Source: Dehalococcoidia bacterium (lineage in GTDB: Bacteria > Chloroflexota > Dehalococcoidia > Lucifugimonadales > CAZENU01). Taken from it: a DNA stretch of 64,000 nucleotides. The translations under genes were made by a program, and so were the position numbers. Positions 4,444-43,974 of the stretch are shown piece by piece. Below the pieces are notes generated by a model that did not search any database, was not told where the DNA came from, and was given only the letters and a program-made list of their open reading frames with translations. Numbering within the stretch: position 1 is the stretch's first letter; each line of letters opens with the position of its first letter. The DNA is taken from positions 702,003-766,002 of the forward strand of contig CBDCQW010000003.1 of NCBI GenBank assembly GCA_965220785.1, written 5' to 3'.

Positions 4444-4728
4444 CGTAGTGTCTCCGTCTGCAAGTCTGTGTGGATTTCTCTTTGACTGCGAGTGTAAGTA
4501 TCGCCCATGCACCTTGTCAACGATAACCTCAATCCCGGCAAGTGTCGCCCTGAACGAAGTGAAGGGCCTGGGGTGAGGAGAGACCGCGTCGTCAGCCAGG
4601 TCGAGGGACCCCTCCCCAGGTCCCTCTCTCCGATCGGGACGACAGGGCGTGGCCGCGGGCGAGGCGTGTTAAGATTCCACGCGCTACCGGCTGAGCCGTC
4701 AACGAGGGTGCCCCGACTGGAGGTCGAC

Positions 4729-7634: not shown

Positions 7635-8987
7635 CTAACGGATGAAGTGGGGTAAGTCCTGATATTTGCTTATAGTTTGGTCAACCAGACTCTGCGAGAC
7701 CTCGGCGAACTCAAACTTCACAAATAGCGAGCTTGCTATGTCGTGAACCAGTTGCACTAGTTGTCCTCTTATTAGGTCTGTTGTGACTTTACCTTGCCAT
7801 TCGTGAGCATCCACGTTGCTTGTTCTCCGAAAGTCTATGAAGGATGGATAATCAAGCACGGACGTATACAAGGTCCGCCGATGAAGCCCTCTGTGTTTGA
7901 TTGCCACTGAAAAACTTTCATTAGGCGCAATACCCAATTCCTCGTAGAGAAGTGCACCATGCAACAGCGCCCTAGCGATTCTAAAGATTGCCAGGTCGAA
8001 CCATAATGACCTCTTCGGATGGCCTAAGCTTGAAGAAAAAAATGGTGCCTCATAGTCTTCTCGAAAGAAAGCGGAGGAAAAGCAGGCACCATCTTGCGCA
8101 AGATGCCAATGGTCTGTCCCCGCAGGAGCTTTAGGCTCTGTTCGGCTTTCGATGCCGTCCTCCGCAGGAACGAGTTGGCTACTGTCAAACCACTCCGTGT
8201 AAGGCAGTTTTGCAGATACGGCTGCCCTTCGAAGTTCCTGAATGGTCCATCTTGAATCCCGTGGGCGAATCAACACTTGACCTGACTCCATGTAGCCGCC
8301 CCCGTCTGGTAGCGACTCCTTGGTCGTCAAATCAACCCGTCGTTTGACCATCCATTCATTCAATGCCTCCTTCATGTCCCCAGCAGGGGTTGCATCGCCT
8401 GCGTTCATGCGACGGAACAAGTCGACAAATTCTGATAGAAATTCGTCCCGCCGTTGCGAAACGCATCGCCTGAGCAAGTCCTCCCACTCTGATGGAGTTT
8501 GAATCTCAGAAGTCGCCGCTCCTGGTCTTCGGATGTACACCTTGCCTGTTTGCAGAATTGGTTGGTTTGCGTCGGACATGCCTTTGGTTGACCGACAGAT
8601 GAAGGGAGTCTTTTCAAGTCCCTGTATTCGAATGATTGGGTGGGGAAGTTGGGTCTTGGGATGGATCTCCATGAAGACTGTTAGCCGTATACCGCGGTCT
8701 CCATGAATATACTTGTCGACTGCGGCGCTCAGTCGAGTCGTATCGTAGGTGGCGGCGATCTCTTGTGAGTGATTGAGGTCAACCTGGAGAGTATCGTCAC
8801 TGTACCCGATTACGATCCACCCACCACCAACATTTGCCATTCCAAAGATGTGCTTTACCAATCTCAAGCCGAACGCCGTGTTGTCATCAAAGGGGACGGC
8901 TGACTTGTACTCCACGTCTTGGCGTTCACCGGGTGACGTAAGTAGGGACTTCCTGAAGTCAGCCACACCGGACTGGTCGGTGGTCAT
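7635..8987 (-). CDS. AlbA_2 (Schlafen-like divergent AAA/DNA-binding) domain protein with unknown about 300-aa C-terminal region
   Basis: N-terminal GERQDVEYKSAV...VKHIFGMANVGGGWIVIGY matches the AlbA_2 pattern (E-x-E/K-F/Y-K ... AfaNt-GG-liiG). G+C is clearly lower than the genome background. Confidence 0.65.
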   Translation of the reverse strand: MTTDQSGVADFRKSLLTSPGERQDVEYKSAVPFDDNTAFGLRLVKHIFGMANVGGGWIVIGYSDDTLQVDLNHSQEIAATYDTTRLSAAVDKYIHGDRGIRLTVFMEIHPKTQLPHPIIRIQGLEKTPFICRSTKGMSDANQPILQTGKVYIRRPGAATSEIQTPSEWEDLLRRCVSQRRDEFLSEFVDLFRRMNAGDATPAGDMKEALNEWMVKRRVDLTTKESLPDGGGYMESGQVLIRPRDSRWTIQELRRAAVSAKLPYTEWFDSSQLVPAEDGIESRTEPKAPAGTDHWHLAQDGACFSSAFFREDYEAPFFSSSLGHPKRSLWFDLAIFRIARALLHGALLYEELGIAPNESFSVAIKHRGLHRRTLYTSVLDYPSFIDFRRTSNVDAHEWQGKVTTDLIRGQLVQLVHDIASSLFVKFEFAEVSQSLVDQTISKYQDLPHFIR

Positions 8988-9037: not shown

Positions 9038-9970
9038 TTACCGTTCGTATAGCTCTATCGTCTCGGCGACCTGCCCGAAAACTCGCTTGAACTTTTCAAT
9101 TGCGTTATCGATCCAGCGCCGAGTCGCCGCTATCACGGCATCGTCGTCAAAGCAGGTGCGATCAGACAGGTACGCACATATGCGATACGAATTGTCGGAG
9201 TATGGGATGCCCCAATGCAACGGCCCTAACTCCGACTCAATAGATACTCGCTGCTGTGTCAGAGCAGTCAAGACTTCTTGGCGTATCGCTAAGGCTTGGG
9301 CTTCCCGTTCTGTATCTGTGCCCTCATAACGCCCCCTATAGACAGTCTCAATCCATATTCCCACCCCGGCTCTGTCCTGGCCGGGTTCCCACCATTCCCG
9401 CACGCTGATGTCCGCCGAGATTGTACAGTCCGGTTTGTAAGACCAGCTCCTGTGCGACCAGTTCCGGAAAAAAGACCAGGCTGGCTTTGTGGGAAGCTGC
9501 CGCCAGAATACTCTACCAAAGTCCCGTAGCGTCTGAACGAACCACTCCTCTACTTCCATCAAGGCTTTGGGGCTGTCATCAATGGTACAGTTCGGAAGTC
9601 GCACTGATATATGGGACTCTCCGTTGCGTTCTCGCTCCCAAATCAATTCCCCAAGCTCGGATTCAATGTTCCTCTTGTCTTCCAGGATGAAATCGAACAG
9701 CCGATGATTCCGAGCTGCATCGAGGTTGTGAATCACAACCGCAACTCTTGCTTCACGCAAGTCCGGGAGGAATGCAGCCCGATAGTGTACCCACGGGTAG
9801 GTGGCACGGAATTCTAGCCAATGTGCTGGTGTGGGAGTCGGAGGGTTATCGAATCCTTGGCTCTTCAACCGATCTGCAATCTTTAGGAAGAAGCATCTGT
9901 ACCGTGCGTCTTCTTGACGACGGCGGGCTTCATCGTGATGGGCCGGATCCCCTGGCACCATACCGTACAC
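9038..9970 (-). CDS. hypothetical protein with an internal tandem duplication, DUF4268-like
   Basis: Two about 140-aa halves each carry the I-E-S-E-L-G-x-L-x-W block (NIESELGELIWERE and SIESELGPLHWGIP), as in DUF4268. Low G+C. Confidence 0.45.
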   Translation of the reverse strand: MYGMVPGDPAHHDEARRRQEDARYRCFFLKIADRLKSQGFDNPPTPTPAHWLEFRATYPWVHYRAAFLPDLREARVAVVIHNLDAARNHRLFDFILEDKRNIESELGELIWERERNGESHISVRLPNCTIDDSPKALMEVEEWFVQTLRDFGRVFWRQLPTKPAWSFFRNWSHRSWSYKPDCTISADISVREWWEPGQDRAGVGIWIETVYRGRYEGTDTEREAQALAIRQEVLTALTQQRVSIESELGPLHWGIPYSDNSYRICAYLSDRTCFDDDAVIAATRRWIDNAIEKFKRVFGQVAETIELYER

Positions 9971-10042: not shown

Positions 10043-13000
10043 TCACCGCGCCACCAGCCCCAATATCCCCCCAATCCGCCGCGCCGTGTCCGTGAAGTGC
10101 TGCACCTCCTCCGGCTTCAGCGGCCGGCCCAGGACGGACTGCTCGCGGTACGACAGCCACTTCTTCAGCACCTGGTACCCGCCGAGCTTGTAGCCCCAGA
10201 CGGCGGCGGGCACGTTGCGCCAGTACGCCCGGCCGTTGAGGTGGACGTCGAACGTCGTGTCGCCGAGCGCGGAAACGACGTCGCCCAGCGCCGTATGCTC
10301 CACCGACGTGTACGGGCGCTCGTCGACCCGCCCCTGCCCCGGCATCACCGCCTCGCCCTGACCGAAGTGGCCCCAGCCCGCCGTCAGCGCGAAGTCGCCG
10401 CCCGCCATGTTGCCGCCGTCCGTCGTCGACGGCACGGCGACCTTGGCGGCCTCGGGCCGCGGCGCCCCCGTCGTGACCCCGGGTACCGGCGTGTCCGAGT
10501 CGAGCAGCGCGGCCAGCTCCCGGCCCCGCGCGGCCGACGCGGCGAGGGCGTCCGACGCCCCGTCCTCGTCACCGTCCGGCCAGCCCGGAAGCGGGATGCG
10601 CGGCCACTCCATCCGCAGCGCTCCGGCGTTCGCCTCCCGGTACGCGGGATCGTGCAGCACCGCGAGCACGTGGTGGAACAGGTCCTCCACGCCGGCGCCT
10701 AAGTGCTCCAGATAGTTCTGGGTGGCTTCTGATAAGTTAGGACGTCGGCCAAGATGGTCGCCGTGGGGGTCCATGGCGCCGGCTTGAAGCCAAGCGGGGA
10801 CGCAAGTGGCGCCACGATCCATAAGGTCAAGGCACCCCATGTGTGCGATGACCTGCGGCGGTGACCACTCCCTACGCGGTTTCTGCTGGGTAACCAGCCA
10901 CTGACTCCTTTCGAAGACGTGCGGCTTATAGTCGGGTCGCGGCCGATCAAGCAATTCGCCATCCGGTTCCCAATAGAGCCACCGCGTATCGAATGGCCGG
11001 TAGCTGTATTGGATGAAGCCAGCTTCCTCGGGTCCACTTCTCTCAGTCTCGCCGGACTTGAAATAGGTTGAGAGACGCGCCTTAAGTCGATCGAGATCGA
11101 TGTCGACCAGGAACGAGTCACGGCTTGTCTTGACTCCTGGAAACGACATCGGAAAGAGATCAGGCAACGACGGCCAGTCGGACCATTCGTCGCTTACCGC
11201 CATCCGCGTGAACGGCAGGCCCAGCGGCAGATTCGGTTCGAAGCCGTCGTAGAGCGCGTCTGGCTCCGCGTGCGCCGTCGCCATCAGGTGCTCGCGCTTC
11301 GTCTGGCCCCATAAGTGGCGGAAGCCGACGGTCTTGGCCGGCACGTGGTCGTCCTTGCGCACCAGCGTGGCGATCGCAGTACCGACTTGGATGCTAACTG
11401 GCTTCTCGGGCGTCGAGAAGATGCTCGGGTCCGGATCGCCGTCCGGCGTCTTTTTCCCCGTCTTGTACTTGTCGCCGTTGAGACAGTCGATGCGGATCGC
11501 GTCGAACGCCTCCAGGTACCGTTCCCTCATGCCCGTGAACGACAGTCCGTCCAGCCACGAGTAGTTCGATATGAAGCACACGACGCCCCTGCCCGTCTTC
11601 TCGGCGATCCGCCGCTCGGCCATGCGGAAGAACCGCACGTACAGGTCGTTCAGGCCCTGACCCTCAGGCCTACGTACACGCTTTATCGTCCGATAGGCTG
11701 TCGAAAGCTCGCGCTCTTCGTCCACAGCCATGCCGGCGAACCCGTTATAGGGCGGATTGCCAAGTATCACAAGGACTGGTGCCTCCTGCTTCACACGCTC
11801 GGCGCGGTCGCGCTCCTCCTCCAGTTCTGGGAATGGGATCGTCTTCTTCTCCTTCGGCTCCCAGCCGGTGAGGGCATTTGTCATGAATATCCCCGCCCGC
11901 TCGTCCGCGTCCTCGGTCAGCGGCGCGTCGAGGTCCTGCATCGTCAGCCCGACCTGCAGGTGGGCGACGACGAATGGCGCGGGCATGATCTCGAAGCCGA
12001 AGACGCGCTCGGTCGCCGCCTGCTTCACACGCGCCCCCGTCAACGCCCCCAGGCCGCGTCCCTCCAGGTTCGCGGCGATGCGCCGCAGCACCTCCGACAG
12101 GTACGCGCCCGTGCCGCAGCACGGGTCCAGCACGTACACGTTCTTGGCCGCCAGCCCGTCGGCGATGCCCAGGTCGTCTTTCAGCGCACGGTCGACGCGG
12201 GCCACCATGTAGCGCACCACCTCGACCGGCGTGTACCAGACGCCGAGCTGCTTGCGCAGCGCCGGATCGAACGCCTCCAGGAACGGCTCGTAGAAGTACG
12301 GGACCGCCTCGCCCTCGCTGAATCGGTCGAAGAAGGCCCCGCGCTCCACCCGGTCCAACGCCGCCGCCGTCCAGTCCAGCACCTCGACCAGCCCCAGCGG
12401 CTGTAGCCGGCCGGGGTCCGATAGCTGCTGGAACAGCGCCCGCAGCACCGGCGCGCGGAGATGCCAGACCGCGGTGCGCCAGTCGAACGCGCCTACGGGC
12501 GGCGGCGTCTGACGGGCCCACAGCACCCACGCCGAGAAGACGCCGTAGAAGAGTGTCTGAACCAGCGTCGACCGGAAGAACGCCGCGCCGCGCTCGCCCT
12601 CGAAGCGGACTCCGAGCGCCTCCTCCAGGGCGGAGCGCACGGCGGCGAGGGACGGCGCGTCACCGGCGGCCTCCACGCGCGCCAGCCCGTCGCGGGCGTA
12701 GGACGCCATGAGCCAGGCCAAATCCCGTGGCTCGGCGAGCGAGGCGCGGTGGGACAGCGCGCGGCAGAGGTACTCGCCGAGGCCGGCGCCGACGTCGCCG
12801 GCGAAGTCGCGAGGCGTCTCCAGCCGCGACTCGAACTGCTCAGCGGACTCGGCCAGCCGGAACGTCTCCAGCTTCGCGGGCCCGCCCGCCGCGTCCTCCC
12901 CGAGCAGCACGAAGTCGCGGGTGTTCGTCACCAGCACGAGCCCGTACCTGCCCCAATAGCGGCTCACCTGGTCGCCGGACGCCGTCAGCCACGCGTCGTC

Positions 13001-13303
13001 GTCGACCGGCTTGACCTCCACGACGCCGCGCTCCGGGGTCTGCCCCTCGCGCAGCCTGCCCCGCTGCGTCTGCCGCGCGGCGTAGAGCCCGAGGTCGGGA
13101 TGGCCCGCCCCCTGCTCCGCCAGCTCGCTGACGCAGTAGACCTTGGGCTTCAGCGTAGCGCCCACGGCGTTCAGCAGGTTCGTCAGCGGAGGGTAGTACG
13201 ACCGCTCGCCGGTCGCCCCGCCGGATGCCCGGATGCGCCGCAGGTCGCCAAGATAGCTCTCGACGGCCGCGGTCAGCCTCTCCCGTGTCCCTGCCATGTC
13301 CAT
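10043..13303 (-). CDS. Fused restriction-modification enzyme: N-terminal PD-(D/E)xK nuclease-like region + N6-adenine DNA methyltransferase + type ISP-like C-terminal domain (type IIG/IIL-like)
   Basis: GHPDLGLY...VVEVKP (PD..ExK). SAM motif I VLDPCCGTGAYL and motif IV LGNPPYNG. C-terminal WGYKLGGYQVLKKWLSYRE is typical of type ISP / MmeI-like enzymes. No helicase domain. Start set at MDMAGTRE; the track start at 13423 is an extension. Confidence 0.8.
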   Translation of the reverse strand: MDMAGTRERLTAAVESYLGDLRRIRASGGATGERSYYPPLTNLLNAVGATLKPKVYCVSELAEQGAGHPDLGLYAARQTQRGRLREGQTPERGVVEVKPVDDDAWLTASGDQVSRYWGRYGLVLVTNTRDFVLLGEDAAGGPAKLETFRLAESAEQFESRLETPRDFAGDVGAGLGEYLCRALSHRASLAEPRDLAWLMASYARDGLARVEAAGDAPSLAAVRSALEEALGVRFEGERGAAFFRSTLVQTLFYGVFSAWVLWARQTPPPVGAFDWRTAVWHLRAPVLRALFQQLSDPGRLQPLGLVEVLDWTAAALDRVERGAFFDRFSEGEAVPYFYEPFLEAFDPALRKQLGVWYTPVEVVRYMVARVDRALKDDLGIADGLAAKNVYVLDPCCGTGAYLSEVLRRIAANLEGRGLGALTGARVKQAATERVFGFEIMPAPFVVAHLQVGLTMQDLDAPLTEDADERAGIFMTNALTGWEPKEKKTIPFPELEEERDRAERVKQEAPVLVILGNPPYNGFAGMAVDEERELSTAYRTIKRVRRPEGQGLNDLYVRFFRMAERRIAEKTGRGVVCFISNYSWLDGLSFTGMRERYLEAFDAIRIDCLNGDKYKTGKKTPDGDPDPSIFSTPEKPVSIQVGTAIATLVRKDDHVPAKTVGFRHLWGQTKREHLMATAHAEPDALYDGFEPNLPLGLPFTRMAVSDEWSDWPSLPDLFPMSFPGVKTSRDSFLVDIDLDRLKARLSTYFKSGETERSGPEEAGFIQYSYRPFDTRWLYWEPDGELLDRPRPDYKPHVFERSQWLVTQQKPRREWSPPQVIAHMGCLDLMDRGATCVPAWLQAGAMDPHGDHLGRRPNLSEATQNYLEHLGAGVEDLFHHVLAVLHDPAYREANAGALRMEWPRIPLPGWPDGDEDGASDALAASAARGRELAALLDSDTPVPGVTTGAPRPEAAKVAVPSTTDGGNMAGGDFALTAGWGHFGQGEAVMPGQGRVDERPYTSVEHTALGDVVSALGDTTFDVHLNGRAYWRNVPAAVWGYKLGGYQVLKKWLSYREQSVLGRPLKPEEVQHFTDTARRIGGILGLVAR

Positions 13304-13461
13304 ACTGTACCCCAGCAGAGGCAACGGCATGAAGGGGAAATCACCCGATGCGACGCTCAGCCGCCGCTTCGTCAGCTCGTCCCCTGGCGCCGTGAGCACC
13401 GTCAGGGCGACGGCCGGGTCCACCCGTCAGGGCCGCGCTGCGCAGGCGCGGGGTCCCGAAG

Positions 13462-13602: not shown

Positions 13603-13634
13603 ACCCTCGCCGGGAGGCTCAAGGCGTACAGGTG

Positions 13635-13640
13635 TATAAT
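13635..13640 (+). promoter_or_regulatory. perfect TATAAT -10 box 31 nt upstream of the ATPase start
   Basis: GGTGTATAATCAG. No good -35 seen. Confidence 0.3.
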
Positions 13641-13670
13641 CAGCAAGAATCCAGTACAAGGCGGCGAGCG

Positions 13671-14861
13671 ATGAACGCGCTAAGAGGAAATACGCCCCTT
13701 CGAAACATAACCTTGAAGAATCTCTTGTCGTTCGGCCCCGAGGGTCTGAGCCTGGATCTTGAGCCCCTCAACGTGCTGATAGGTCCGAACGGGTCCGGCA
13801 AGTCCAATTTGCTTGACGGAATTGAACTCTTGAAGTCAGCCCCCGTTCGGGTTACTGACCCTATTGCCAACGGAGGCGGTATCCGCAATTGGATTTGGGG
13901 AAGACAGCCCGGCCCCACTGCCTGGGTTGAGACCATCATGGAAAATCCCAATGACGGTCGACATTTCCTCCGCCACAAGATCGAATTCAGAGAGTTCGAA
14001 CAGGCCTTTCGGTTGGTGGATGAGAGGGTCGAGAACGAGTTCCCGGACTTAGGACACGAAGACCCCTTTTTTTTCTACAGATTCCAAGATGGCCGACCAG
14101 CACTGGCGGTCAAGGGTGAAGATAACCGCAGGCCGCTTCAGAGAGAGGATGTAGCTGACGACGAGTCCATACTCTCGCAGCGAAAGGAACCGGATCAATA
14201 CCCGGAGCTGGCCCATCTGAGCAGTTTGTACGAGGGCATGAGGCTTTATCGCGACTGGGGTTTTGGACGGAAGGCTCCCTTTCGTCAGCCCCAGAGTACC
14301 GATGTCCGTCCGACTCCTCTCAGGGAGGATTTTTCCAATCTTGGCATGTTCTTGAATCGTATCCGGCAAAACCCTAGAACCAAGTCGAGACTCATCGATC
14401 GTCTGACCGATGCTTACGAAGGGCTGAACGACTTTGAACTAAACTTCGAAGGAGGCTCCGTTCAGGTGTTCTTCAGCGAAGGCGATCTCGCCGTACCGGC
14501 AACGCGATTGTCGGACGGCAGCATGAAATACCTGTGTCTCCTGGCGATTCTGCTGAACCCGAATCCACCGCCAATTGTGTGTATAGAGGAGCCGGAGATG
14601 GGTATGCACCCTGACCTGCTGCCGAAAATTGCCGACCTCTTGGTCGAGGCGTCACAGCAGTGCCAACTGATAGTCACTACGCACTCGGATATTCTAGTTA
14701 ACGCACTAACCGACCGGCCCGCTTCGATAGTCGTGTGCGAAAAGCATGACGGCAAAACCTCGATGACCCGCCTTGACCCGGGGGACTTGTCGAGCTGGCT
14801 GGCAGAATACCGCCTAGGTGAACTGTGGACCAAAGGCCAGCTCGGGGGTGTCAGGTGGTGA
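13671..14861 (+). CDS. ABC-type (AAA_21/OLD-like) ATPase
   Basis: Walker A GPNGSGKSN, signature-like LSDGSMKYL, Walker B IVCIEEPEMGMHP and H-loop VTTHS. Start at MNALRGN. Confidence 0.85.
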   Translation: MNALRGNTPLRNITLKNLLSFGPEGLSLDLEPLNVLIGPNGSGKSNLLDGIELLKSAPVRVTDPIANGGGIRNWIWGRQPGPTAWVETIMENPNDGRHFLRHKIEFREFEQAFRLVDERVENEFPDLGHEDPFFFYRFQDGRPALAVKGEDNRRPLQREDVADDESILSQRKEPDQYPELAHLSSLYEGMRLYRDWGFGRKAPFRQPQSTDVRPTPLREDFSNLGMFLNRIRQNPRTKSRLIDRLTDAYEGLNDFELNFEGGSVQVFFSEGDLAVPATRLSDGSMKYLCLLAILLNPNPPPIVCIEEPEMGMHPDLLPKIADLLVEASQQCQLIVTTHSDILVNALTDRPASIVVCEKHDGKTSMTRLDPGDLSSWLAEYRLGELWTKGQLGGVRW

Positions 14862-15454
14862 AGGCGCGCATTTTTCTGGAGGGTGGGGGAGGAAAGGATC
14901 TAGATTCCAGATGCAGGGAGGGTTTCAACAAGCTTTTGAAAAAATGTGGCTTTGAAGGCCGGATGCCTAAGCTGACTGCCAGCGGGGACAGGAATTCCGC
15001 TTACAAGGGCTTCAAGTCCGCCCACGCGAGTGCGTCCAGCCAAGACTATATCGCAATGCTGGTAGACAGCGAGGACCCGGTCAAGGACGTCTACTCTCCC
15101 TGGGCGCACCTGGTCGAGAGAGAAGGTTGGAACGTGCCGCCGGGTGCCACGGACGAGCAGGTGCTGCTGATGGCGACTTGCATGGAAACCTGGATAGTCG
15201 CGGACGGGAGGGCCTTGGCCGCCCACTACGGCCAGTGTCTGCAGAGGTCCGCCCTGCCAGCGGTTAACAACCTGGAATCCAAAGATACGAAGACGGTTCA
15301 GGACAGTTTATTCCGCGCGACAAGGAACTGCACCGGCCCATACGAGAAGGGAAAGAAGTCTTACGAACTGCTGGGACAGATCAACCCCGCCGCCATCGAC
15401 CCCCTGCTGCCCAGCTTCAAGAGGGCACGGGACATATTGGTCTCAAAACTGTGA
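14858..15454 (+). CDS. DUF4276 family protein (Toprim-like E...DxD pattern)
   Basis: The GTG start overlaps the ATPase stop (GTGA). RIFLEGGGGKD near the N-terminus and MLVDSEDP later. Overall resemblance to DUF4276 proteins, which are routinely paired with AAA_21 ATPases. Confidence 0.7.
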   Translation: MKARIFLEGGGGKDLDSRCREGFNKLLKKCGFEGRMPKLTASGDRNSAYKGFKSAHASASSQDYIAMLVDSEDPVKDVYSPWAHLVEREGWNVPPGATDEQVLLMATCMETWIVADGRALAAHYGQCLQRSALPAVNNLESKDTKTVQDSLFRATRNCTGPYEKGKKSYELLGQINPAAIDPLLPSFKRARDILVSKL

Positions 15455-16552: not shown

Positions 16553-16721
16553 GGAGTTCTCCCCTGCTTACATGGCCTGTCCGAGGCGGGGCCGGATTGT
16601 AAGCCGACGTAGCATAGCCTGTCAAGGCGGAGCGCAGCCACCGCTACCAGCATACCACAGCGGCCAGCTTGGCTAACCGGGGCACCGGAGAATGGTGATG
16701 GACCAAGACCCGTGCGACCTC

Positions 16722-22815: not shown

Positions 22816-25629
22816 TTGGGTAGGGCTCCCAATAGACGAGGCCGACTCGTGGCGGCCCTCATTCTCGGCTTGATTGTCGCCCCGCCCGCGGGCGGGGACT
22901 GGCCCGGTCTCGCCGCGTTGGACAATGGGACCGTCCAGATCCAGGACGGGGCGGGTAACGTACCCGACAACCTGACGCCCGGCGACAATATCGTGGTCTT
23001 CATCCAGGACGCCAGTTTGGGCGGCTCCAGCACGGGCGAAGCCACATGGACGAGTATCCCTGAGGAGGTGCCCGGCGACGGCGACGATTGGTGGAGCGTG
23101 GCCACCGGGGAGCTCTTCCCGTCGATCTACACGTTGTCGGCAAGTGGCTACGACACCTCCACGCCCGAAAACACCCCGCTGACCGGGCGTCCTACGGCCG
23201 AAGTCGATGGGGTCGACACCGTCCTATCGGACTGGTATGTGGAAACCGGGGAATTCATACCGCTCTATGACATCAACGCGAGCAGTACGCTGGTTGTGAG
23301 GTTCACCTTCGACGGAGTCGACTTCCACTCAGTCTCGGACCAAGTGCTCAGGGTGACGAGCACGTCCGACCCGGACGGCGAGTGGGTCGCCGTGTCCGAG
23401 GTCGCCAGCGAGACGGACTCGAGTCCGAGTGTTACCTCCGGCCTCTTCCGCGGCGAGGTGGCTCTCAGCGGCGACGCCTCTTTCTCCGGGTTGGGCGACG
23501 GCAAAGTCTGGGTGAAAGGCGGCGACGAGGTGACCGCCGCGTACCACAAGCCCGGCGGAGCTCAGGTCCGCACCCACCGGCTGCAAGTCGTTTCCGCGCC
23601 GATGCCGATGCCCACGCACACGGCCACGCCTACGCCGACGCCCACAGCTACGCCGACGCCCACGCCCACCGCCACGCCGACGCCAACGCACACGGCCACG
23701 CCTACGCCGACGCCCACAGCCACGCCGACGCCGACGCCCACAGCCACGCCTGCGCCTGCGCCCACAGCCACGGCTACGCCCACCGCCACGCCGACGCCGA
23801 CGCACACGGCCACGCCTACACCCACGCCCACAGCTACGCCGACGCCCACGCCCACCGCCACGCCGACGCCTACGCCTGCGCCCACAGCCACGCCTACGCT
23901 TGCGCCTACAGCCACGCCTGCGCCTGCGCCCACAGCCACGCCTACGCCGACGCCCACAGCCACGCCTACGCCGACGCCCACAGCCACGCCTACGCCAACG
24001 CACACGGCCACGCCTGCGCCTGCGCCCACAGCCACGCCTACGCCGACGCCCACAGCCACGCCGACGCCGACGCACACGGCCACGCCTACGCCGACGCCCA
24101 CAGCCACGCCTACGCCGACGCCCACAGCCACGCCTGCGCCTGCGCCCACAGCCACGCCGACGCACACAGCCACGCCCACCGCCACGCCTACGCCCACAGC
24201 CACGCCTGCGCCTGCGCCCACAGCCACGCCGACGCCCACAGCCACGCCGACGCCCACCGCCACGCCCATCGCCACGCCTACGCCCACCGCCACGCCGACG
24301 CCGACGCACACGGCCACGCCTACGCCGACGCCCACGCCCACCGCCACGCCTACGCCTGCGCCCACAGCCACGCCTACGGCGACGCACACCGCCACGCCCA
24401 CCGCCACGCCGACGCCCACGCCCATAGCCACGCCTACGCCCACGCCCACGGCCACACCTACGCCCACCGCCACGCCTACGCCCACGCCGGGCGGGTTGGC
24501 TCATGGGAGCGTCCAGGTCCAGGACGGGGCGGGTAACGTACCCGACAGCCTGCAGTCCGGCGACATACTGGTCGTCCTCATCCGGGACACCGATCTTCAC
24601 GGCTCCAGCACGGGCGAAGCCACATGGACGAATATCCCCGAGCAGGTGCAGGCCTTCGACGTGTGGAACCTGGTCACCGGATCGCCGCACCCGTCGGTCC
24701 ATACGTTGTCGGCGAGCGGCTACGATACTGCCGCCCCAGAAAACACCCCGCTGCTAACGGTTATGGCCGAGGTCAACGGGGTGCCGAACATCGTCTCGGA
24801 CTTCGACTTCGATCCGGGGTACTTCGAGTTGCCCTACGACGTGAACGCGGCGAGCGCCTTGGTGGTGACGTTCACCTTCGACGGTGTCGACTCGTTCTCA
24901 TCCTCGGACCGGGTGGCCAGAGTGACGAGCACCTCCGACCCGGACGGCGAGTGGGTCGCCGTCTCCGAGGTCGCCAGCGAGACGGACTCGAGTCCGAGTG
25001 TTACCTCCGGCCTCTTCCGCGGCGAGGTGGCTCTCAGCAGCGGCGCTTCTTTCTCGGGATTGGGCGACGGCAAGGTCTGGGTAGAAGGCGGCGACGACGT
25101 GACCGCCACGTATTATGAGCCCGGAGGCACTCAGGTCATCGACAGCCACTGGTTGCGGGCCATCATATCCACGCCCACGCCACCTCCCACGCCCACAGCC
25201 ACGCCCACGCCCACAGCCACGCCTACGCACACAGCCACGCCCACGCCCACAGCCACGCCCACGCCCACAGCCACGCCCACGCCCACAGCCACGCCTACGC
25301 CAACCCCCACGCCCACAGCCACGCCCACAGCCACGCCCACGCCCACAGCCACCCCCACGCAGACAGCCACGCCTACGCAGACAGCCACGCCTACGCACAC
25401 AGCCACGCCTACGCACACAGCCACGCCTACGCCCACAGCCACGCCCACGCCCACAGCCACGCCCACGCCCACAGCCACGCCTACGCCAACCCCCACGCTT
25501 ACGCCAATCCCCACGCCGGCGCTCCCCATCCCAGCCGCTCACTCCGCAGGGCTGTTCGCCATGGGGCTCCTGTTCGTCGCGGCGGTCTCGTGGCGATTGC
25601 GCCGGTCAGATGGCGCGGTGCGGGGATAG
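22816..25629 (+). CDS. secreted or surface repeat protein: two about 230-aa homologous domains, each followed by a long Thr-Pro(-Ala) linker, with a C-terminal hydrophobic anchor
   Basis: Signal-like N-terminus. The domain [15 protein letters not shown]...[12 protein letters not shown]...[39 protein letters not shown] is repeated from about 24486. The C-terminus is [22 protein letters not shown]. Confidence 0.8.
23590..24485 (+). repeat. coding low-complexity tandem repeat (TPTPTATP units, about 300 codons)
   Basis: Iterated ACGCC(C/T)AC(A/G)(C/G)C(C/T)ACGCC motifs. Confidence 0.95.
25168..25505 (+). repeat. second coding Thr-Pro tandem repeat (about 110 codons)
   Basis: Same repeat type as 23590-24485. 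Confidence 0.95.
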
Positions 25630-25662: not shown

Positions 25663-27603
25663 TCAGCGGCGCCGGCCGCCGTCCATGAGCTCCGCGATCC
25701 GCTGCCGGCTGATGACCGCGGCAAGCACGACGGCGGCAGCCACGGCGAGGACCAGGCTCACGGTCGCAACCCCCGAGGCGAGCCTGTCCGAGACGGACTC
25801 GATCACGTCGAACGTCTGGCCGGCCACGAGCCGGCCGGTGTCGGCGTAGTCGTCGGCAGGGTCGATATCGCCGATGGCCTGCCAGCGGGCCTCGTCGATC
25901 AGGGGCGAGGCGACGGCCGGATAGACCAGACCGGACAGCACGGCGACCGCGGCGGCGCATACGATGAGGGCCGCGGCCCCCCAGACGACCCGCCCCCACC
26001 AGTCGCGTCCGCCCAGGAGCCCGACGCCCGCCAGCAGCAGCAGGGCCGGCAGGAAGAGGAGCCACCGGTACGTCCTGGCCGCCGCGACCGCGGTCCGGGC
26101 GCGGTCTATGTCGGCCATCGCCTCGGCGCCGTCGCTCTCGATCACGTCCTCGGTGAAGTCGGCGGTCGTGTAGGTCCAGCCGTCGGCGAGCGCCGCCCGC
26201 GCTTCCTGCAGCGCGTCGTAGACGCCTTCGTTGCCCCTCCCGGTCAGGTCCTCCCGCAGGTCGTCCTGCGTGTATGTCCAGCCGTCCCTCATGAGCGATC
26301 TGATTTCGTCCAGCCGCTCGACGCTGTCCCCGGCCCCAGCCTCCTCGAAGGCGTCTCGGAGCCGCTCATGTGAGAAGGAGACCGAATCCGGGACCTGGTC
26401 CAGGACCAGCCGCGTCACCTCCGCGCCGAGGTCTATCCCCAACTCGTCGAGGAGCTCGCTATGGGTGCGGCTCGGAGGTATGCATGTGGGCAGCTTCGGT
26501 GTGCCGCTCAGGAGCGGAGACAGTGCCTGTTCCGGCGTCCGGCAGACCGGCAACCGGTCGATCCGCGCCTGTATCTTTCTCTCGACAAACCGGGTCAAGG
26601 GCCCATGCGCGAGGCGCTTGTTCTCGGCGAGAGACACCTCGAAGTCGAAGCCTTCGGCCCGCCCCGCGATGTATGGAGTCGCCTCGTCTATCAGGCGCTC
26701 GACCTGGACGCGGACCCATGACGGCGGGGCGGCGTCGCGCAGGGCCGAGACCACCTCGGCCGACGATACAGTCTCGCCGAAAGGAAGCCCATCGATCGTG
26801 TCGCCCAGTTCCTTCAACATCTTCGGCGCTATGACCTCGTCGTACAGCAGGTCGTAGGCCGGGCTCTCGGCGAGGATGTCCTTGACCTCGGCCGCAGCGA
26901 TATCGACGCGATCGGCGAGAGGGACGCTGATGACGAACTCGTCGGTATCGCCCTTCACGTAGGGAGCTACCTCGTCGAACATGCGCTGTCCTTGCTCCCG
27001 CGCCCACTCCGGAGGCAGCACGGCGCGGGCGGCTTCGGCGATGCGCTCGTCCGAGACCTGGACGCCGCCCGGGAGTCCTTCGCGCGCCCAGCCGGCGGCG
27101 GCCTCTTCGATTCGCGGGATGAGCACCAGCTCGTGGAGGATCGCGTAGCCGTCCGACTCGTCGAGCAGGGCTCTGATCTCGGCGATCAGGTCGTCCGCGC
27201 GCTCGTCTGTCGCGACGACGAGGGTGAAGTCGTCGCTCCGCCCGGTGACGTAGCCGCCGAGCTCGTCCAGGTTGCGCTCAACGGCGTCCTGCAGCCAGTC
27301 GGGCGGGACGGCGCGGTTGAGGGCGGCGACTATCCGGTCGGTCGTGAGGCCGGAGTCCAGCAGGGGCGTGTCCTCGACCTTGTCGCCCGCCTTCGCTTCC
27401 TCCACGGCCCGCCGGTCCTCGAGGACCGACGTCGGCAGGTCCGCGAGCGCGAACTCGTATACGTCGTTCTCGTCGAGCAGCGAGGCGTAGGACTGTGGGT
27501 CCAGGAAAAAGCCGCTTACCTGCCAGACGACCAACGTCGTCAGCAGCACGAAGAAGAAGACCGCGGCCACGACCAGGGACAGCGCGCGCGTGATCCAGAT
27601 CAT
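25663..27603 (-). CDS. hypothetical integral membrane protein with a large extracytoplasmic region
   Basis: 646 aa with an N-terminal TM helix (LSLVVAAVFFFVLLTTLVVW) and C-terminal TM helices. No family recognised. Confidence 0.65.
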   Translation of the reverse strand: MIWITRALSLVVAAVFFFVLLTTLVVWQVSGFFLDPQSYASLLDENDVYEFALADLPTSVLEDRRAVEEAKAGDKVEDTPLLDSGLTTDRIVAALNRAVPPDWLQDAVERNLDELGGYVTGRSDDFTLVVATDERADDLIAEIRALLDESDGYAILHELVLIPRIEEAAAGWAREGLPGGVQVSDERIAEAARAVLPPEWAREQGQRMFDEVAPYVKGDTDEFVISVPLADRVDIAAAEVKDILAESPAYDLLYDEVIAPKMLKELGDTIDGLPFGETVSSAEVVSALRDAAPPSWVRVQVERLIDEATPYIAGRAEGFDFEVSLAENKRLAHGPLTRFVERKIQARIDRLPVCRTPEQALSPLLSGTPKLPTCIPPSRTHSELLDELGIDLGAEVTRLVLDQVPDSVSFSHERLRDAFEEAGAGDSVERLDEIRSLMRDGWTYTQDDLREDLTGRGNEGVYDALQEARAALADGWTYTTADFTEDVIESDGAEAMADIDRARTAVAAARTYRWLLFLPALLLLAGVGLLGGRDWWGRVVWGAAALIVCAAAVAVLSGLVYPAVASPLIDEARWQAIGDIDPADDYADTGRLVAGQTFDVIESVSDRLASGVATVSLVLAVAAAVVLAAVISRQRIAELMDGGRRR

Positions 27604-27612
27604 AGGGCCAGT

Positions 27613-28321
27613 CTACCTCGCCGGGTCGGTGCAGGGCCGGGGTCTGGATCCGGCCGCAGGTACGCCGGCGGCGGCCATCAACTCGCGCAGCTCGGCCATC
27701 AGATGCTCGGGCGGCCTTATCGCGGGCGGTCTGGGCGGCCCGGCGGGCAGGCCGACCGTCTCCATCGGGGCCTTGATGATCGGCCCCTCGCCGGCGGTAA
27801 CCTCGCCTACCCTGGCGATCCACCGGCGCCAGGCCCACTTGAACGAGGCCATGTGGTCCTTGACGCCGACATAGTCCCGGGCCTCGAGCAGACTCCACGT
27901 CTTCAGCGGGTACTCGGGCCAGCAGGTGCCGAGATGGCCGACGAAGCCGCGCGCGCCGAGCGCGTGGCTCCAGGCAAGGTTGTCGGTGTTGTCCAGCACG
28001 ACGAGCCGGTCGGCGAACGTGACTATGCCGTCGCGGAACGAGTCGTCGTCGGGCGTGGCCCACTTCAAAGCTCTGACCGTCTCTATCTCGGCGAGCTGTT
28101 CGATCAGGTCGAGGCTCATGGAGAAGCCCAGCCACCAGGTGTTGTACGCCATGATCGACACGTCGGCTGCCGCGTTCGCTACCCGGTTGAACAGCCGCAG
28201 CACGTCGCCCTCCGTGGCCGGATAGTAGTATGCCGGCGATACCTGGACGGCTGAGACGCCTACGCGCGCCGCGTGGCGGGCCATGTCGGCGACCGTCCTG
28301 GCGTCGGTAGTGGGCTTCCTT
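27613..28321 (-). pseudogene. DapA/NAL (dihydrodipicolinate synthase) family gene, C-terminal two-thirds
   Basis: TTDARTVADMARHAARVGVSAVQVSPAYYYPATEGDVLRLF...VRALKWAT (Schiff-base Lys block). An in-frame TGA lies just upstream, and the N-terminal part is found 434 bp away. Confidence 0.75.
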
Positions 28322-28401
28322 CAGTGAACATACAGGAACCTCATATCTTGCCGTGGCTGGGAGGTTGGTTCCCGTTCTCTGCCGTCCCTATCTCTCTGCC
28401 C

Positions 28402-28431
28402 TTGACAAGCCACAAAATGCGATGCTAGGCT
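28402..28431 (+). promoter_or_regulatory. sigma70-like promoter candidate TTGACA-N18-TAGGCT upstream of the tRNA
   Basis: Consensus -35 box, with an 18-nt spacer as in the TGGAACA-element promoters. Lies about 175 nt upstream of the tRNA. Confidence 0.35.
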
Positions 28432-28555
28432 CAGTACGCTGCTCACATATAACTCAGCCCCGTATCTAACTCAGACCTGCCCACACGGGCCTCTATTTAC
28501 CAACCGGCTCTCCGCACCTTAGTTGTCTCGACCTTCGCTGCTGCATGGACTAAAA

Positions 28556-28585
28556 CGGGGCGACAGCGTTTGGACTGTCGCCCCG
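28556..28585. other. perfect 11-bp GC-rich hairpin (CGGGGCGACAG-loop-CTGTCGCCCCG)
   Basis: Seen directly. On the minus strand it is followed by GTTTTAG, on the plus strand by no T-run. Lies between the promoter-like box and the tRNA. Confidence 0.6.
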
Positions 28586-28608
28586 CCATCCAAACCAAGG
28601 GTTGCTGT

Positions 28609-28702
28609 GGAGGGATGCCTAGAGCGGTAATGGGCCTGACTCAAAATCAGTGGCACGGCGCTTACCCCGCCGTCGTGGGTTCGATCCCCACTCCCTCCGC
28701 CA
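28609..28702 (+). tRNA. class II (long variable arm) tRNA, anticodon CAA by manual folding (Leu), encoded CCA
   Basis: Acceptor GGAGGGA/TCCCTCC, T arm GTGGG-TTCGATC-CCCAC, anticodon arm CCTGA-CTCAAAA-TCAGT, variable arm ACGGCG-CTTACCC-CGCCGT, discriminator G. 94 nt. Confidence 0.75.
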
Positions 28703-28755
28703 TCACCTCGGCTTGGTGGCCCATAGCTTACCACACTCTATTTTCCCCCTGCCGC

Positions 28756-28899
28756 CTAATGCTCTCCGGCCGCTCCGCCGACTAGCAGCGAGCCGTTGCC
28801 CGTGGTGACGCCGTGCTCTATGGTGAATCGCAGGTTGTGGCGCAGCGCGTCGAGGTCGAGCCTGAAGTCCTCGGTGAACGGGGTCGCCATGGGTATCAT
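28756..28899 (-). pseudogene. DapA/NAL family gene, N-terminal 47 codons
   Basis: MIPMATPFTEDFRLDLDALRHNLRFTIEHGVTTGNGSLLVGGAAGEH then stop. Matches the family N-terminus (TPF...D...L...GV.G..v.GttGE). Confidence 0.7.
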
Positions 28900-28969
28900 G
28901 GGGCCTGGAGCCACTCTCGTATTCGTTCAGGTTCCAAAGGCCGGTCTCCTTTCGATCTTCGGGTAGTCT

Positions 28970-30331
28970 CTACAGGCCCGCTTCCCTGACCGTCTCCGGC
29001 GTTACCGTGCTGGGCAGCCTGTAGCCCCGGAACAGCCAGTATCCCAGAAATGCGACCGCGCCGGCCACCGGGCCGACCATGCGCAGGCCCAGCGGGTTGA
29101 CCGCAGTGTCTCCCAACTTCAGCACGATGGCCAGCACGAGGGGAGAGAACGACGAGCCGATCTTCTCGAACAGGTTCTGGGTCGCGTAGAACATCCCCTC
29201 GCGGCGCATCCCTGTGCGGATGTGGTCGTAGTCGGTGATGTCGGCCGTGATGGCCCTGGGCAGCAGGTTGACGCCCGCCATCGGGATGCCGGCAAGGAAG
29301 GCGAACGCGATGCCCTGCGCCAGCTTCGGCGCGAACGGTAGGAAGCCCGCGAAGAAGAGGAACGGCATGTAGACCGCCGTGCCGAGCAGGCAGGCGGAGT
29401 AGACCCACCGCTTGCCCTTGCGGTCGCCCAGCTTCCACAGCGCGAACGCCGAGAGCACCATCGCCAACAGGGCGACCGCGGTCAGCAACGAGGTGATGGT
29501 CCCCTCGTTCTCACGCTCCAGGACCTCCGTCACGAAGAACGGCAGCCACGAGATAACCATCGACACGGCGAGCTGGTAGAAGACGAAGGTGGGCAGGAAG
29601 TAGAGGAACTGCTTGTTGCGCAGCGTCGCGGTGAAGGCGGACCCGAGCTCGATGTCCGCCGCGGGCGTCTCCCTCGGCGCGTGCTTCCAGACGCCGCCCA
29701 GGCCGGTGTAGCGGGAGCCGAGGGCCAGCAGCGCGAAGATCGCCCCCATCGCGAAGAAGCCTAGCTGGTCTTTGATCAGCCCGCTCAGCGCGAGCCCGGC
29801 CACCGCGCCCGCGATCCCGAAGTAGAACTGCCACGCGACGATGCTCATGCGGTCCCGGTGCCCGGGCGCGATCTCCGGCAGCAGCGCCTCGTACGGCCCG
29901 CCCGTGAGCGTAGTCGCCAGGAAGAACAGCTCCAGGACGACGAAGAGATAGACGGCGTTGACGTAGCTGGAGTCGCCGCCGGGCGTGAGCCAGAGCAGCG
30001 CGAAGAAGAGCGCGTAGAACGGGGTGCCGAACAGCACGAACGGGATGCGCCGGCCCCAGCGGCTACGCGTCCGGTCGCTCCACCAGCCGATGATCGGGTC
30101 GTCGATGGCCTCGATCACCCGGCCCGCCGTCAGGATAAGGCCGACGAGCACCCGGGGGTCGATGTCCAGCGGGCCAACGGACACGCCGGGCACCGCGGAG
30201 ACCGCGCCCTCGTCCGCGGGAGGCGCCAGGAAGAACAGCAGCCACAGGTGCCTGCTCTGGGCCATGGCCTGGGTGCCCACCAGGTCCGCAGTGTAAAGCA
30301 GCTTGTTGACGACCGGGAGTCTGCTAGCCAC
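28970..30331 (-). CDS. MFS transporter of the glycoside-pentoside-hexuronide (GPH, MelB-like) type
   Basis: IEAIDDPIIGWWSDRTRSRWGRRIPFVLFGTP is the GPH signature. About 12 hydrophobic segments. Confidence 0.8.
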   Translation of the reverse strand: MASRLPVVNKLLYTADLVGTQAMAQSRHLWLLFFLAPPADEGAVSAVPGVSVGPLDIDPRVLVGLILTAGRVIEAIDDPIIGWWSDRTRSRWGRRIPFVLFGTPFYALFFALLWLTPGGDSSYVNAVYLFVVLELFFLATTLTGGPYEALLPEIAPGHRDRMSIVAWQFYFGIAGAVAGLALSGLIKDQLGFFAMGAIFALLALGSRYTGLGGVWKHAPRETPAADIELGSAFTATLRNKQFLYFLPTFVFYQLAVSMVISWLPFFVTEVLERENEGTITSLLTAVALLAMVLSAFALWKLGDRKGKRWVYSACLLGTAVYMPFLFFAGFLPFAPKLAQGIAFAFLAGIPMAGVNLLPRAITADITDYDHIRTGMRREGMFYATQNLFEKIGSSFSPLVLAIVLKLGDTAVNPLGLRMVGPVAGAVAFLGYWLFRGYRLPSTVTPETVREAGL

Positions 30332-43800: not shown

Positions 43801-43974
43801 ACCACGGGCCGACCGTACCCGACGAAATCGGATCTTCGGGACTTGGAGTTCGCTCCATCCATGTGAACGCGCCCGCGGCCCCAGGCTGGTTGCCTCGGAC
43901 GCCGAGGTATTGACAGGAACCGCCATCCTGCTACGGTGGCCAATGGTCTGGGCCTTTGAGGATGGGGAGACCAG

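Follow-up and report, generated by a model that had tools for sequence, protein, structure and literature searches.

The locus considered here raises the question of how a class II tRNA gene came to lie inside a protein-coding gene, which amino acid such a tRNA would carry and what it would mean for the cell. It belongs to a 64-kb stretch of a Dehalococcoidia bacterium genome (contig CBDCQW010000003.1, positions 702,003 to 766,002), the whole of which is referred to as the window; all coordinates are positions in this window, and L-numbers denote the loci fetched for comparison. The interrupted gene encodes an aldolase of the DHDPS/NAL family. It is judged probable, if only modestly so, that one recent illegitimate recombination, or an insertion followed by a deletion, put into this gene a segment, whose foreign origin we infer, consisting of a promoter-like box, a hairpin and a serine-type tRNA with the anticodon CAA.

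The first step in the answer concerns the gene itself, of which two pieces are found on the minus strand by translation and by the Pfam profile PF00701, as the sequence-only reading of the locus had proposed. The N-terminal remnant (28760..28899, minus strand), with 46 family codons and a His, matches profile positions 7-47 and reads MIPMATPFTEDFRLDLDALRHNLRFTIEHGVTTGNGSLLVGGAAGEH (MIPMATPF...GGAAGEH) from 28899 to 28760; it is ended directly by a TAG stop made by the junction (28758-28756), and an alternative GTG start is located at 28914. The C-terminal remnant (27613..28308, minus strand), with 231 codons, begins at 28308 with TDARTVADMARHAARVG, contains the ALKWAT block, stays open to the normal stop and matches profile positions 86-271. 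Both pieces are in the same frame, a coincidence expected by chance in one case out of three and therefore given no weight. Profile positions 48-85 are missing from the DNA of the locus, so that the full (beta/alpha)8 barrel of the family cannot be encoded, while the C-terminal part retains the YN motif and the Schiff-base Lys; in particular, RALKW is identical in all six aligned full-length homologues, where it is followed by A-T/A/S, and (A/V)YNTWW is conserved in the aligned homologues except for the first residue. The lysine of RALKW is taken here to be the catalytic Schiff-base residue of the family.

The C-terminal piece, used as a protein query, retrieved full-length proteins of 307-316 aa with 81-96% amino-acid identity, and an uninterrupted orthologue is present in five related assemblies (L001, L002, L003, L004, and L262), the central part of the gene being also unbroken in the last three. 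In L001 an MFS_2 transporter (453 aa), the DHDPS-family gene (308 aa), and a 645-aa protein follow one another, an order shared by L004 and the window; in L002, a contig of 3.79 Mb, the AMP-binding/acyltransferase, MFS, and DHDPS-family genes are arranged as in the window. By blastn, window 30335-28760 corresponds to L001 2174-3751 and window 28308-25660 to L001 3846-6488 with no further rearrangement, the N-terminal half being collinear up to L001 3751 and the C-terminal half with L001 3846-4538. As the gene is unbroken in five related loci, the insertion is the derived state; an origin of the two halves from different paralogues, which had been named at the outset as the outcome that would overturn the split-gene claim, is ruled out by the synteny with one intact orthologue between the same neighbours, and the claim of a single split gene is borne out. 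With 31 TIM-barrel codons gone and a stop at the junction, the locus is, on all these sequence features, a pseudogene of the DHDPS/NAL family.

The alignment of the two halves to the intact orthologue, a check that the earlier reading had itself recommended, sets the junctions at 28760/28759 and 28309/28308. The gene breaks off after GAGCA (28760) and homology is back at ACCGACGCC (28308); between them a segment of 451 bp (28309..28759) replaces 94 bp (L001 3752-3845), corresponding to 31 codons at which the orthologues encode PLLSVDERKAVMEAAVDAVQGDAPVITSIQH. Each junction is uncertain by 1-4 bp, since CAC or T may match on the right and T on the left. The limits originally given to the segment, 28322-28755 (434 bp), were off because stop codons and not homology had been followed: the residues RKPT (28321-28310), with which the C-terminal part was made to start at 28321, belong to the insert and not to the gene, and the estimate of 35-40 missing codons is corrected to 31 by comparison with the orthologue. 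A tRNA-bearing segment does split the gene, as had been claimed; the event was a replacement, with 94 bp out and 451 bp in, and not a plain insertion. The lower G+C content ascribed to the segment is also real, being 57.2% (55.3% upstream of the tRNA) versus 66-69% in the flanks.

The boundaries of the segment bear no trace of a mobile element. Neither a target-site duplication nor terminal inverted repeats nor flanking direct or inverted repeats were seen at the insert; its comparison with the window and the related loci, another recommended check, gave no further copy and no homology to the orthologous loci, and no partial copy of the tRNA 3' end occurs elsewhere in the window. No recombinase, integrase, transposase, or phage gene lies near the insert, whose neighbours are metabolic or transport genes, and the neighbouring genes scanned between 10 and 41 kb of the window are of metabolic, transport, or defence type. 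The search of the insert against Rfam gave no other RNA family up to an E value of 10. A transposon, a miniature inverted-repeat transposable element, an integron attC site, and an integrative element are ruled out by the lack of terminal repeats, of a target duplication, of a recombinase gene, and of core-site motifs beside the hairpin. For a coding gene to receive a tRNA unit is unusual, although the illegitimate event behind it is ordinary in mechanism.

The two remnants also allow the event to be dated in relative terms. The N-terminal half, over 46 codons compared with L001, shows 8 synonymous differences and 1 non-synonymous difference; the C-terminal half, over 231 codons, shows 43 synonymous and 10 non-synonymous differences plus one extra codon; the intact MFS neighbour, over 454 codons, shows 61 and 33, respectively. 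No stop or frameshift is present in either half of the gene. The event is considered recent because the halves are undecayed and their differences mostly synonymous; this pattern indicates that purifying selection acted on the gene through practically all the time elapsed since the split from L001 and that the interruption is young.

The tRNA gene (28609..28702, plus strand) is the only one that ARAGORN finds in the window and encodes a class II tRNA of 94 nt including the CCA end, with the anticodon CAA at 28642-28644 and a G at the discriminator position 73 (28699). Its identification as a plus-strand class II tRNA, already made in the sequence-only reading, is confirmed by ARAGORN, which labels it tRNA-Leu(CAA), and by the Rfam tRNA family (RF00005), with a score of 41.2 bits versus a gathering score of 29. 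The molecule has a 7/5 architecture, with a 7-bp acceptor stem (GGAGGGA/UCCCUCC) and a 5-bp T stem in the arm GUGGG-UUCGAUC-CCCAC; the anticodon loop is CUCAAAA, and the variable region of 23 nt comprises a 6-bp stem, a 7-nt loop, and one unpaired 3' nucleotide. The stems of the ARAGORN cloverleaf measure 7/4/4 (plus one mismatch)/6/5 bp; the mismatch, C27-U43, is also found in genuine gammaproteobacterial tRNA-Ser(CGA). Pairing is perfect in the acceptor, T, and variable stems, and none of the expected elements (T loop, G18G19, U33, A37, CCA) is missing.

Judged by its identity elements, this is a seryl-type tRNA body with a leucine anticodon and not an ordinary tRNA-Leu. The seryl marks are G73, the acceptor pairs G1-C72, G2-C71, and A3-U70, and the 6-bp variable stem with one unpaired 3' nucleotide; in this way the molecule has the features required of a bacterial tRNA-Ser (G73, G1-C72, G2-C71, and a variable stem of at least 5 bp with one unpaired 3' nucleotide) apart from the D arm, whose irregularity is described below, and the anticodon, which is neither NGA nor GCU and lies one transition, at position 35, from CGA. 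Of the features required of a bacterial tRNA-Leu only the anticodon is present, the discriminator being G instead of A and the variable arm not of leucine type. Published identity rules agree: A73 is a determinant of leucine identity in Bacteria, Eukarya, and Archaea, the G73 of tRNA-Ser acts as an antideterminant for leucyl-tRNA synthetase (LeuRS), and serine identity derives from the variable arm independently of the anticodon (PMC9976931). Since seryl-tRNA synthetase (SerRS) ignores the anticodon and G73 blocks LeuRS, a transcribed and processed molecule would be expected to be charged by SerRS and rejected by LeuRS.

The acceptor stem points in the same direction. One genome per species was scanned for this stem followed by U8-G9-C10-C11, with any anticodon and a purine at position 73; among the 119 matches listed, the real tRNAs with G73 all had serine anticodons (at least 69 CGA, at least 40 UGA, and at least 4 GGA), those with A73 were mainly tRNA-Tyr (at least 4 GUA; one UGA), the single TTA match was not a tRNA, and no leucine tRNA was present. 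The best BLAST matches of the insert among the fetched loci were likewise tRNA-Ser(CGA) genes, with 74-79% identity. A D loop GAGCGG was initially regarded as a further serine marker and was dropped, being present in many genuine A73 tRNA-Leu(CAA) genes.

The segment carries, in addition, the elements of a putative transcription unit. The promoter-like box reported earlier is confirmed at 28402..28431 (plus strand): it is a sigma-70-type TTGACA-N18-TAGGCT pointing to the tRNA, the 5' end of which is 177 nt past the -10, with TTGACA at 28402-28407, an 18-nt spacer, TAGGCT at 28426-28431, and a TG at 28423-28424, one base before the -10. The -35 hexamer agrees fully with the consensus and the -10 hexamer at three of six positions (T1, A2, T6). 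Because the pattern TTGACA-N16-18-TANNNT occurs 4 times in the window versus 0.09 times expected from shuffles, the host appears to use promoters of this kind; the other three occurrences, at 4491-4520 (minus strand), 16596-16625 (minus strand), and 43910-43937 (plus strand), are likely to be real promoters, useful for a host consensus. The transcript predicted from the box would have a leader of about 170 nt, and the whole promoter-tRNA unit is antisense to the host operon.

Within this leader lies a perfect, G+C-rich hairpin of 11 bp with an 8-nt loop (28556..28585; arms 28556-28566 and 28575-28585), found exactly as first described and the only structure that stands out when the plus-strand leader is folded. 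On the plus strand it has no U tract; on the minus strand it is followed by GUUUUAGU, is terminator-like, and folds with -38.1 kcal/mol (z = -5.7), a value equalled by none of 200 shuffles. It could stop transcripts of the MFS and DHDPS-family genes, which would probably lower the transcription of the C-terminal remnant and of the 646-aa gene beyond it; a terminator scan did not call the hairpin, so that minus-strand termination is put forward as a suggestion.

As regards the origin of the tRNA, the comparison with tRNA-Ser of Chloroflexota (L025, L037, L093, L115, and L119) shows differences across the D arm, the anticodon stem, and the variable arm. Most of these differences must predate the insertion because the flanking gene halves show no decay, and the most likely source, as suggested by this degree of divergence, would be a donor that already carried a diverged tRNA, a phage or another mobile element. 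The mechanism could be the repair of a break capturing DNA or the integration of a larger element that was then deleted. BLAST of the insert against phages gave one weak match, to a gene annotated as tRNA-Ser; BLAST of the tRNA against E. coli genomes and of the insert flanks against all 260 fetched loci gave no match.

Similar tRNAs with G73 and the anticodon CAA, all labelled tRNA-Leu by ARAGORN when well formed, do occur elsewhere. Well-formed genes are present in the IMG/VR viral contigs L130, where the gene adjoins a tail sheath gene, L137, where it adjoins an HNH endonuclease and a large terminase 92% identical to that of Rhizobium phage RHph_TM3_3_14B, and L258; in L186/L205 a G73 tRNA(CAA) is located beside a phage portal gene, and L176, L193, L218, L243, L246, and L252 hold further well-formed examples with serine-type variable arms. 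In L246 and L240 the genes lie among cellular-looking neighbours. The alignment of eleven G73 tRNA(CAA) sequences with that of the window gives a standard cloverleaf in which 21 of 25 pairs are kept through two-sided changes, and because of this covariation the group is regarded as a diverse set under structural selection and not as one mutant gene.

Two further observations were made among these loci. A JGI metagenome contig that looks cellular (L240:887-1076, minus strand) contains tandem serine-type tRNAs with the anticodons UAA and CAA, 8 nt apart, which would cover both UUR leucine codons and which adjoin a gene for a PD40 beta-propeller protein. In L150:9435-9524, L190:846-936, and L230:1470-1560, G73 tRNA(CAA)-like sequences have the first two acceptor pairs broken (CCAGAGA/UCUCUCC); those of L150 and L190 adjoin genes with a Schlafen AlbA_2 domain, and the three sequences may be attachment-site remnants or decoys.

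The most serious alternative to an acquired and functional unit is that the 451 bp are an idle relic, either filler DNA at a break or the last remnant of a prophage or mobile element, in which the tRNA is not expressed or not chargeable and only the loss of the aldolase matters; this is regarded as possible, although not probable. Several results lend it weight and also count against the explanation favoured here. The D region is irregular, reading CCUAGAGCGGUAAUGGG versus the canonical CCAGAGCGGACGAAUGGG or CCGGAGUGGUUGAUCGGA of tRNA-Ser, with one additional nucleotide on the 5' side (positions 8-13), two fewer in the 3' loop, and no 20a/20b; ARAGORN draws a 4-bp D stem without nucleotide 26, Rfam places an inserted base after position 9, and the canonical serine D arm (3 bp plus G13-A22, with 20a/20b in the loop) is not found. 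The Rfam score is below those of all the comparison tRNAs (46.5-60.3 bits), and in the profile hidden Markov models, where genuine tRNAs reach 45-83 bits against the profile of their own set, the window tRNA is an outlier to serine and leucine alike, scoring 38.6 bits with the profile of all tRNA-Ser. The unit is present in a single copy; exact-pattern scans (D plus anticodon arms, acceptor plus T arm, and D arm alone) of reference genomes, IMG/VR, and JGI metagenomes found no relative, BLAST of the insert against plasmids gave no match, and a protein search with the 71-aa antisense open reading frame (ORF), intended to catch miscalled ORFs on similar DNA, also gave none, so that with no donor or relative in these collections the foreign origin is an inference. 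A stricter consensus scan did not call the promoter-like box, the -10 matching at only three of six positions, and no plus-strand terminator is located downstream of the tRNA. A tRNA mistranslating Leu as Ser should be counter-selected, and the event is so recent that the intactness of the gene is uninformative on its present function. What speaks against an idle relic is the perfect pairing of the acceptor, T, and variable stems with all the universal loop residues in place, the strongly enriched promoter-like pattern pointing at the tRNA, and the existence elsewhere of similar hybrid tRNAs that are clearly under structural selection.

A second alternative, considered improbable, is that the gene is an ordinary tRNA-Leu(CAA), the working UUG decoder of the genome relocated into the aldolase gene and charged by LeuRS. 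The ARAGORN call, made from the anticodon, agrees with it, as does the meaning of UUG in the host, where the orthologues have Leu opposite 21 of 26 window TTG codons and Val, Met, or, in one case, Ser opposite the others. Similarly, Ser is never found opposite TTG in the phage contigs that carry tRNAs of this kind, which would fit leucine charging: TTG stands for Leu at 8 of 9 terminase positions and, in the tail sheath protein, for Leu at 7 positions and otherwise for other hydrophobic residues or Ala. The profile of A73 tRNA-Leu gives the window tRNA 29.3 bits, not worse than the 25.1 bits obtained with tRNA-Ser chosen without the acceptor pattern; the other G73 tRNA(CAA) genes score higher with the serine than with the leucine models, sometimes narrowly, and the assignment made here is based on discriminator, acceptor stem, and variable-arm geometry and not on these profiles.

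The discriminator G73, as an antideterminant for LeuRS, and the acceptor stem, which among G73 tRNAs in the matches listed is common only to tRNA-Ser, argue against an ordinary tRNA-Leu, and so does the variable region. Metagenomes and viral contigs were scanned for class II sequences with the GAGCGG D loop and the CUCAAAA anticodon loop; of 123 matches, about 14 of which were not recognised as tRNAs by ARAGORN, 99 had A73 with variable regions of 13-16 nt (two of 19), and 21 had G73 with variable regions of 16-26 nt, a range that includes the 23 nt of the window tRNA with its serine-type geometry. In the ARAGORN structures, tRNA-Ser (n = 122) has a variable stem of 4-9 bp, mostly 5-7, with one unpaired 3' nucleotide in 119 of 122; well-formed G73 tRNA(CAA) (n = 7) has 5-8 bp with one unpaired 3' nucleotide in all seven; A73 tRNA-Leu(CAA) (n = 66), a set dominated by one type that is presumably archaeal or of the candidate phyla radiation kind and not typically bacterial, has 0-4 bp, mostly 3, and mostly three unpaired 3' nucleotides. 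The composition of the last set, together with the fact that the sets do not comprise the tRNA-Leu or tRNA-Ser(CGA) of the window's own genome, tells against the serine assignment to some degree.

An artefact is the least probable explanation: a chimeric read or mis-join placing a tRNA locus in the gene, or base-calling errors producing A35 and the extra D-arm base in a tRNA-Ser(CGA), could be suspected, as the MFS protein, the 646-aa protein, and the truncated DHDPS ORF have no record from the same strain, the junctions lack independent confirmation, and assembly quality varies in the lineage (L004 is a 1x long-read contig and L262 a scaffold with Ns), but after a mis-join the sequence would not return, 94 bp later and in unchanged orientation, to the gene it had left, between collinear stretches of more than 1.5 kb and more than 2.6 kb, and the differences from canonical tRNA-Ser are many, in D arm, anticodon stem, and variable arm, and not one or two bases.

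If the recent capture of a serine-type tRNA(CAA) is accepted, its consequences for translation have to be considered at the level of UUG. A reassignment of this codon to Ser is rejected both in the host and in the phage contigs with similar tRNAs because TTG aligns with Leu in both, as described above. An active tRNA would read UUG as Ser in competition with the genuine tRNA-Leu and would cause a low level of Leu-to-Ser mistranslation. TTG accounts for 47 of the 948 leucine codons of the window (5%), about 5 per 1000 codons, and TCG is the commonest serine codon in the window genes (194 of 524). That such mistranslation actually takes place in this cell is conceivable on the features of the gene, with the balance leaning against it; otherwise the tRNA, though intact, is carried along without a role. 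What is certain is that the aldolase gene has been lost through the event.

The pseudogene is flanked by two intact genes on the minus strand. Upstream, an MFS_2 sugar-type transporter of 453 aa (28970..30331), supported by a Pfam match, is syntenic with its relatives; downstream, a 646-aa predicted membrane protein (25663..27603), without a significant Pfam family in a Pfam search, is syntenic with L001. Because the 645-aa gene of L001 starts 10 bp past the stop of the DHDPS-family gene, the two genes probably share an operon, at least by their spacing. In L002:10965-13892, insertion sequence-type genes (HTH_Tnp_1 plus rve, DUF772, and DDE_Tnp_1) directly follow the intact DHDPS-family gene in place of the 645-aa gene, and the gene orders compared indicate that the boundary between the DHDPS-family and 645-aa genes has been rearranged more than once in the lineage. 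In L262:365-623, on a short metagenome scaffold interrupted by a run of Ns, unrelated sequence stands in place of the 5' part of the orthologue and a 183-aa fusion protein (P0072) is called, probably a scaffolding artefact.

Other features of the window are of separate interest. Between 6000 and 17000 an island of lower G+C content (52-62% in places versus 66% overall) contains defence-type genes, including a weak Schlafen AlbA_2 match (7635-8987), DUF4268 (9038-9970), a type ISP restriction-modification enzyme (10043-13423), and an AAA_21 ATPase (13632-14861) with DUF4276 (14825-15454). A 937-aa ORF (22816-25629, plus strand) encodes two copies of a domain of about 230 aa, each followed by hundreds of Thr-Pro-rich repeat residues (TPTPTATP...); it has no Pfam match and shows strong GC and AT skew. 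A CRISPR-DR23 hit at 27274-27309 (plus strand), with 25.9 bits in Rfam versus a gathering score of 45, was taken as noise, being located inside the 646-aa coding region with no repeat array.

The recurrence of G73 tRNA(CAA) genes allows a broader and more doubtful proposal, namely an undescribed class of 7/5 seryl-type tRNAs with UUR anticodons, carried on phages and mobile DNA across phyla and expressed, which would serve a programmed or conditional misincorporation of Ser for Leu or a non-ribosomal use of Ser-tRNA and would possibly move into genes as minimal promoter-tRNA cassettes. In any case, G73 class II tRNA(CAA) genes, labelled tRNA-Leu by annotation pipelines from the anticodon alone, may be a real and unrecognised class, and a wider class of this kind would bear on how phages and hosts tolerate or use mistranslation as well as on tRNA annotation. 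A tRNA unit in a coding gene without a recombinase footprint represents a clean and datable illegitimate capture of foreign DNA in Chloroflexota; were the tRNA idle, only a recent pseudogene containing an unusual filler would be left of the finding.

Among known systems, some resemblance to phage tRNA genes is evident, since tRNAs travel on phages and similar hybrid tRNAs are present in viral contigs. Mobile elements usually insert into tRNA genes, whereas here it is a protein-coding gene that has received a tRNA together with 357 bp of flanking DNA, and, unlike in phage or element integration, no integrase, attachment repeat, or other phage gene is located near the tRNA insert. A full-text literature search for tRNA-Ser(CAA) gave only an in vitro code-engineering study. 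A natural mismatch between body and anticodon is also known in bacteria from the tRNA-ProX of Streptomyces and Kitasatospora with ProRSx (PMC11415595); that system concerns another amino acid and other codons and has a dedicated synthetase gene, whereas no synthetase gene is found near the window tRNA. In the CUG-clade yeasts a duplicated tRNA-Ser gained a leucine anticodon, giving tRNA-Ser(CAG), which is charged by a SerRS that does not read the anticodon (PMC11415595); those organisms are eukaryotes in which CUG has been reassigned and the genomes have adapted, while UUG positions in the window are still Leu. The human tRNA-Ser-AGA-2-3 variant G35A similarly turns a serine anticodon into a reader of UUN codons with misincorporation of Ser (PMC12993449, PMC9956149); there the change is a point mutation in a resident gene that has kept its native position, with an otherwise canonical tRNA body and no inserted cassette.

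The closest described kind is represented by the allo-tRNAs, bacterial and phage tRNAs with seryl identity (G73 and a long variable arm) and non-serine anticodons, including readers of UUA and UUG (Mukai et al. 2017, PMC5389517; PMC7609411). Serine is incorporated at Leu codons by some of them when these are expressed in E. coli, while others are inactive; some adjoin transposon-related or toxin-antitoxin genes; and they have been reported from Clostridia, Proteobacteria, and Acidobacteria, not from Chloroflexota (PMC5389517, PMC7609411). The window tRNA shares with them the combination of seryl identity elements and a non-serine anticodon. Allo-tRNAs have a 12-bp acceptor branch divided as 8/4 or 9/3, whereas the window tRNA and the G73 tRNA(CAA) genes are 7/5; in the window tRNA, U8 and G9 cannot pair with C65 and A64, and by this predicted fold it is no member of the group. 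If active, it would be a natural bacterial mistranslator of a sense codon with an ordinary cloverleaf, acquired horizontally instead of arising through mutation in a resident gene, and would in this way extend the series formed by the allo-tRNAs, the yeast CUG clade, and the human tRNA-Ser variants.

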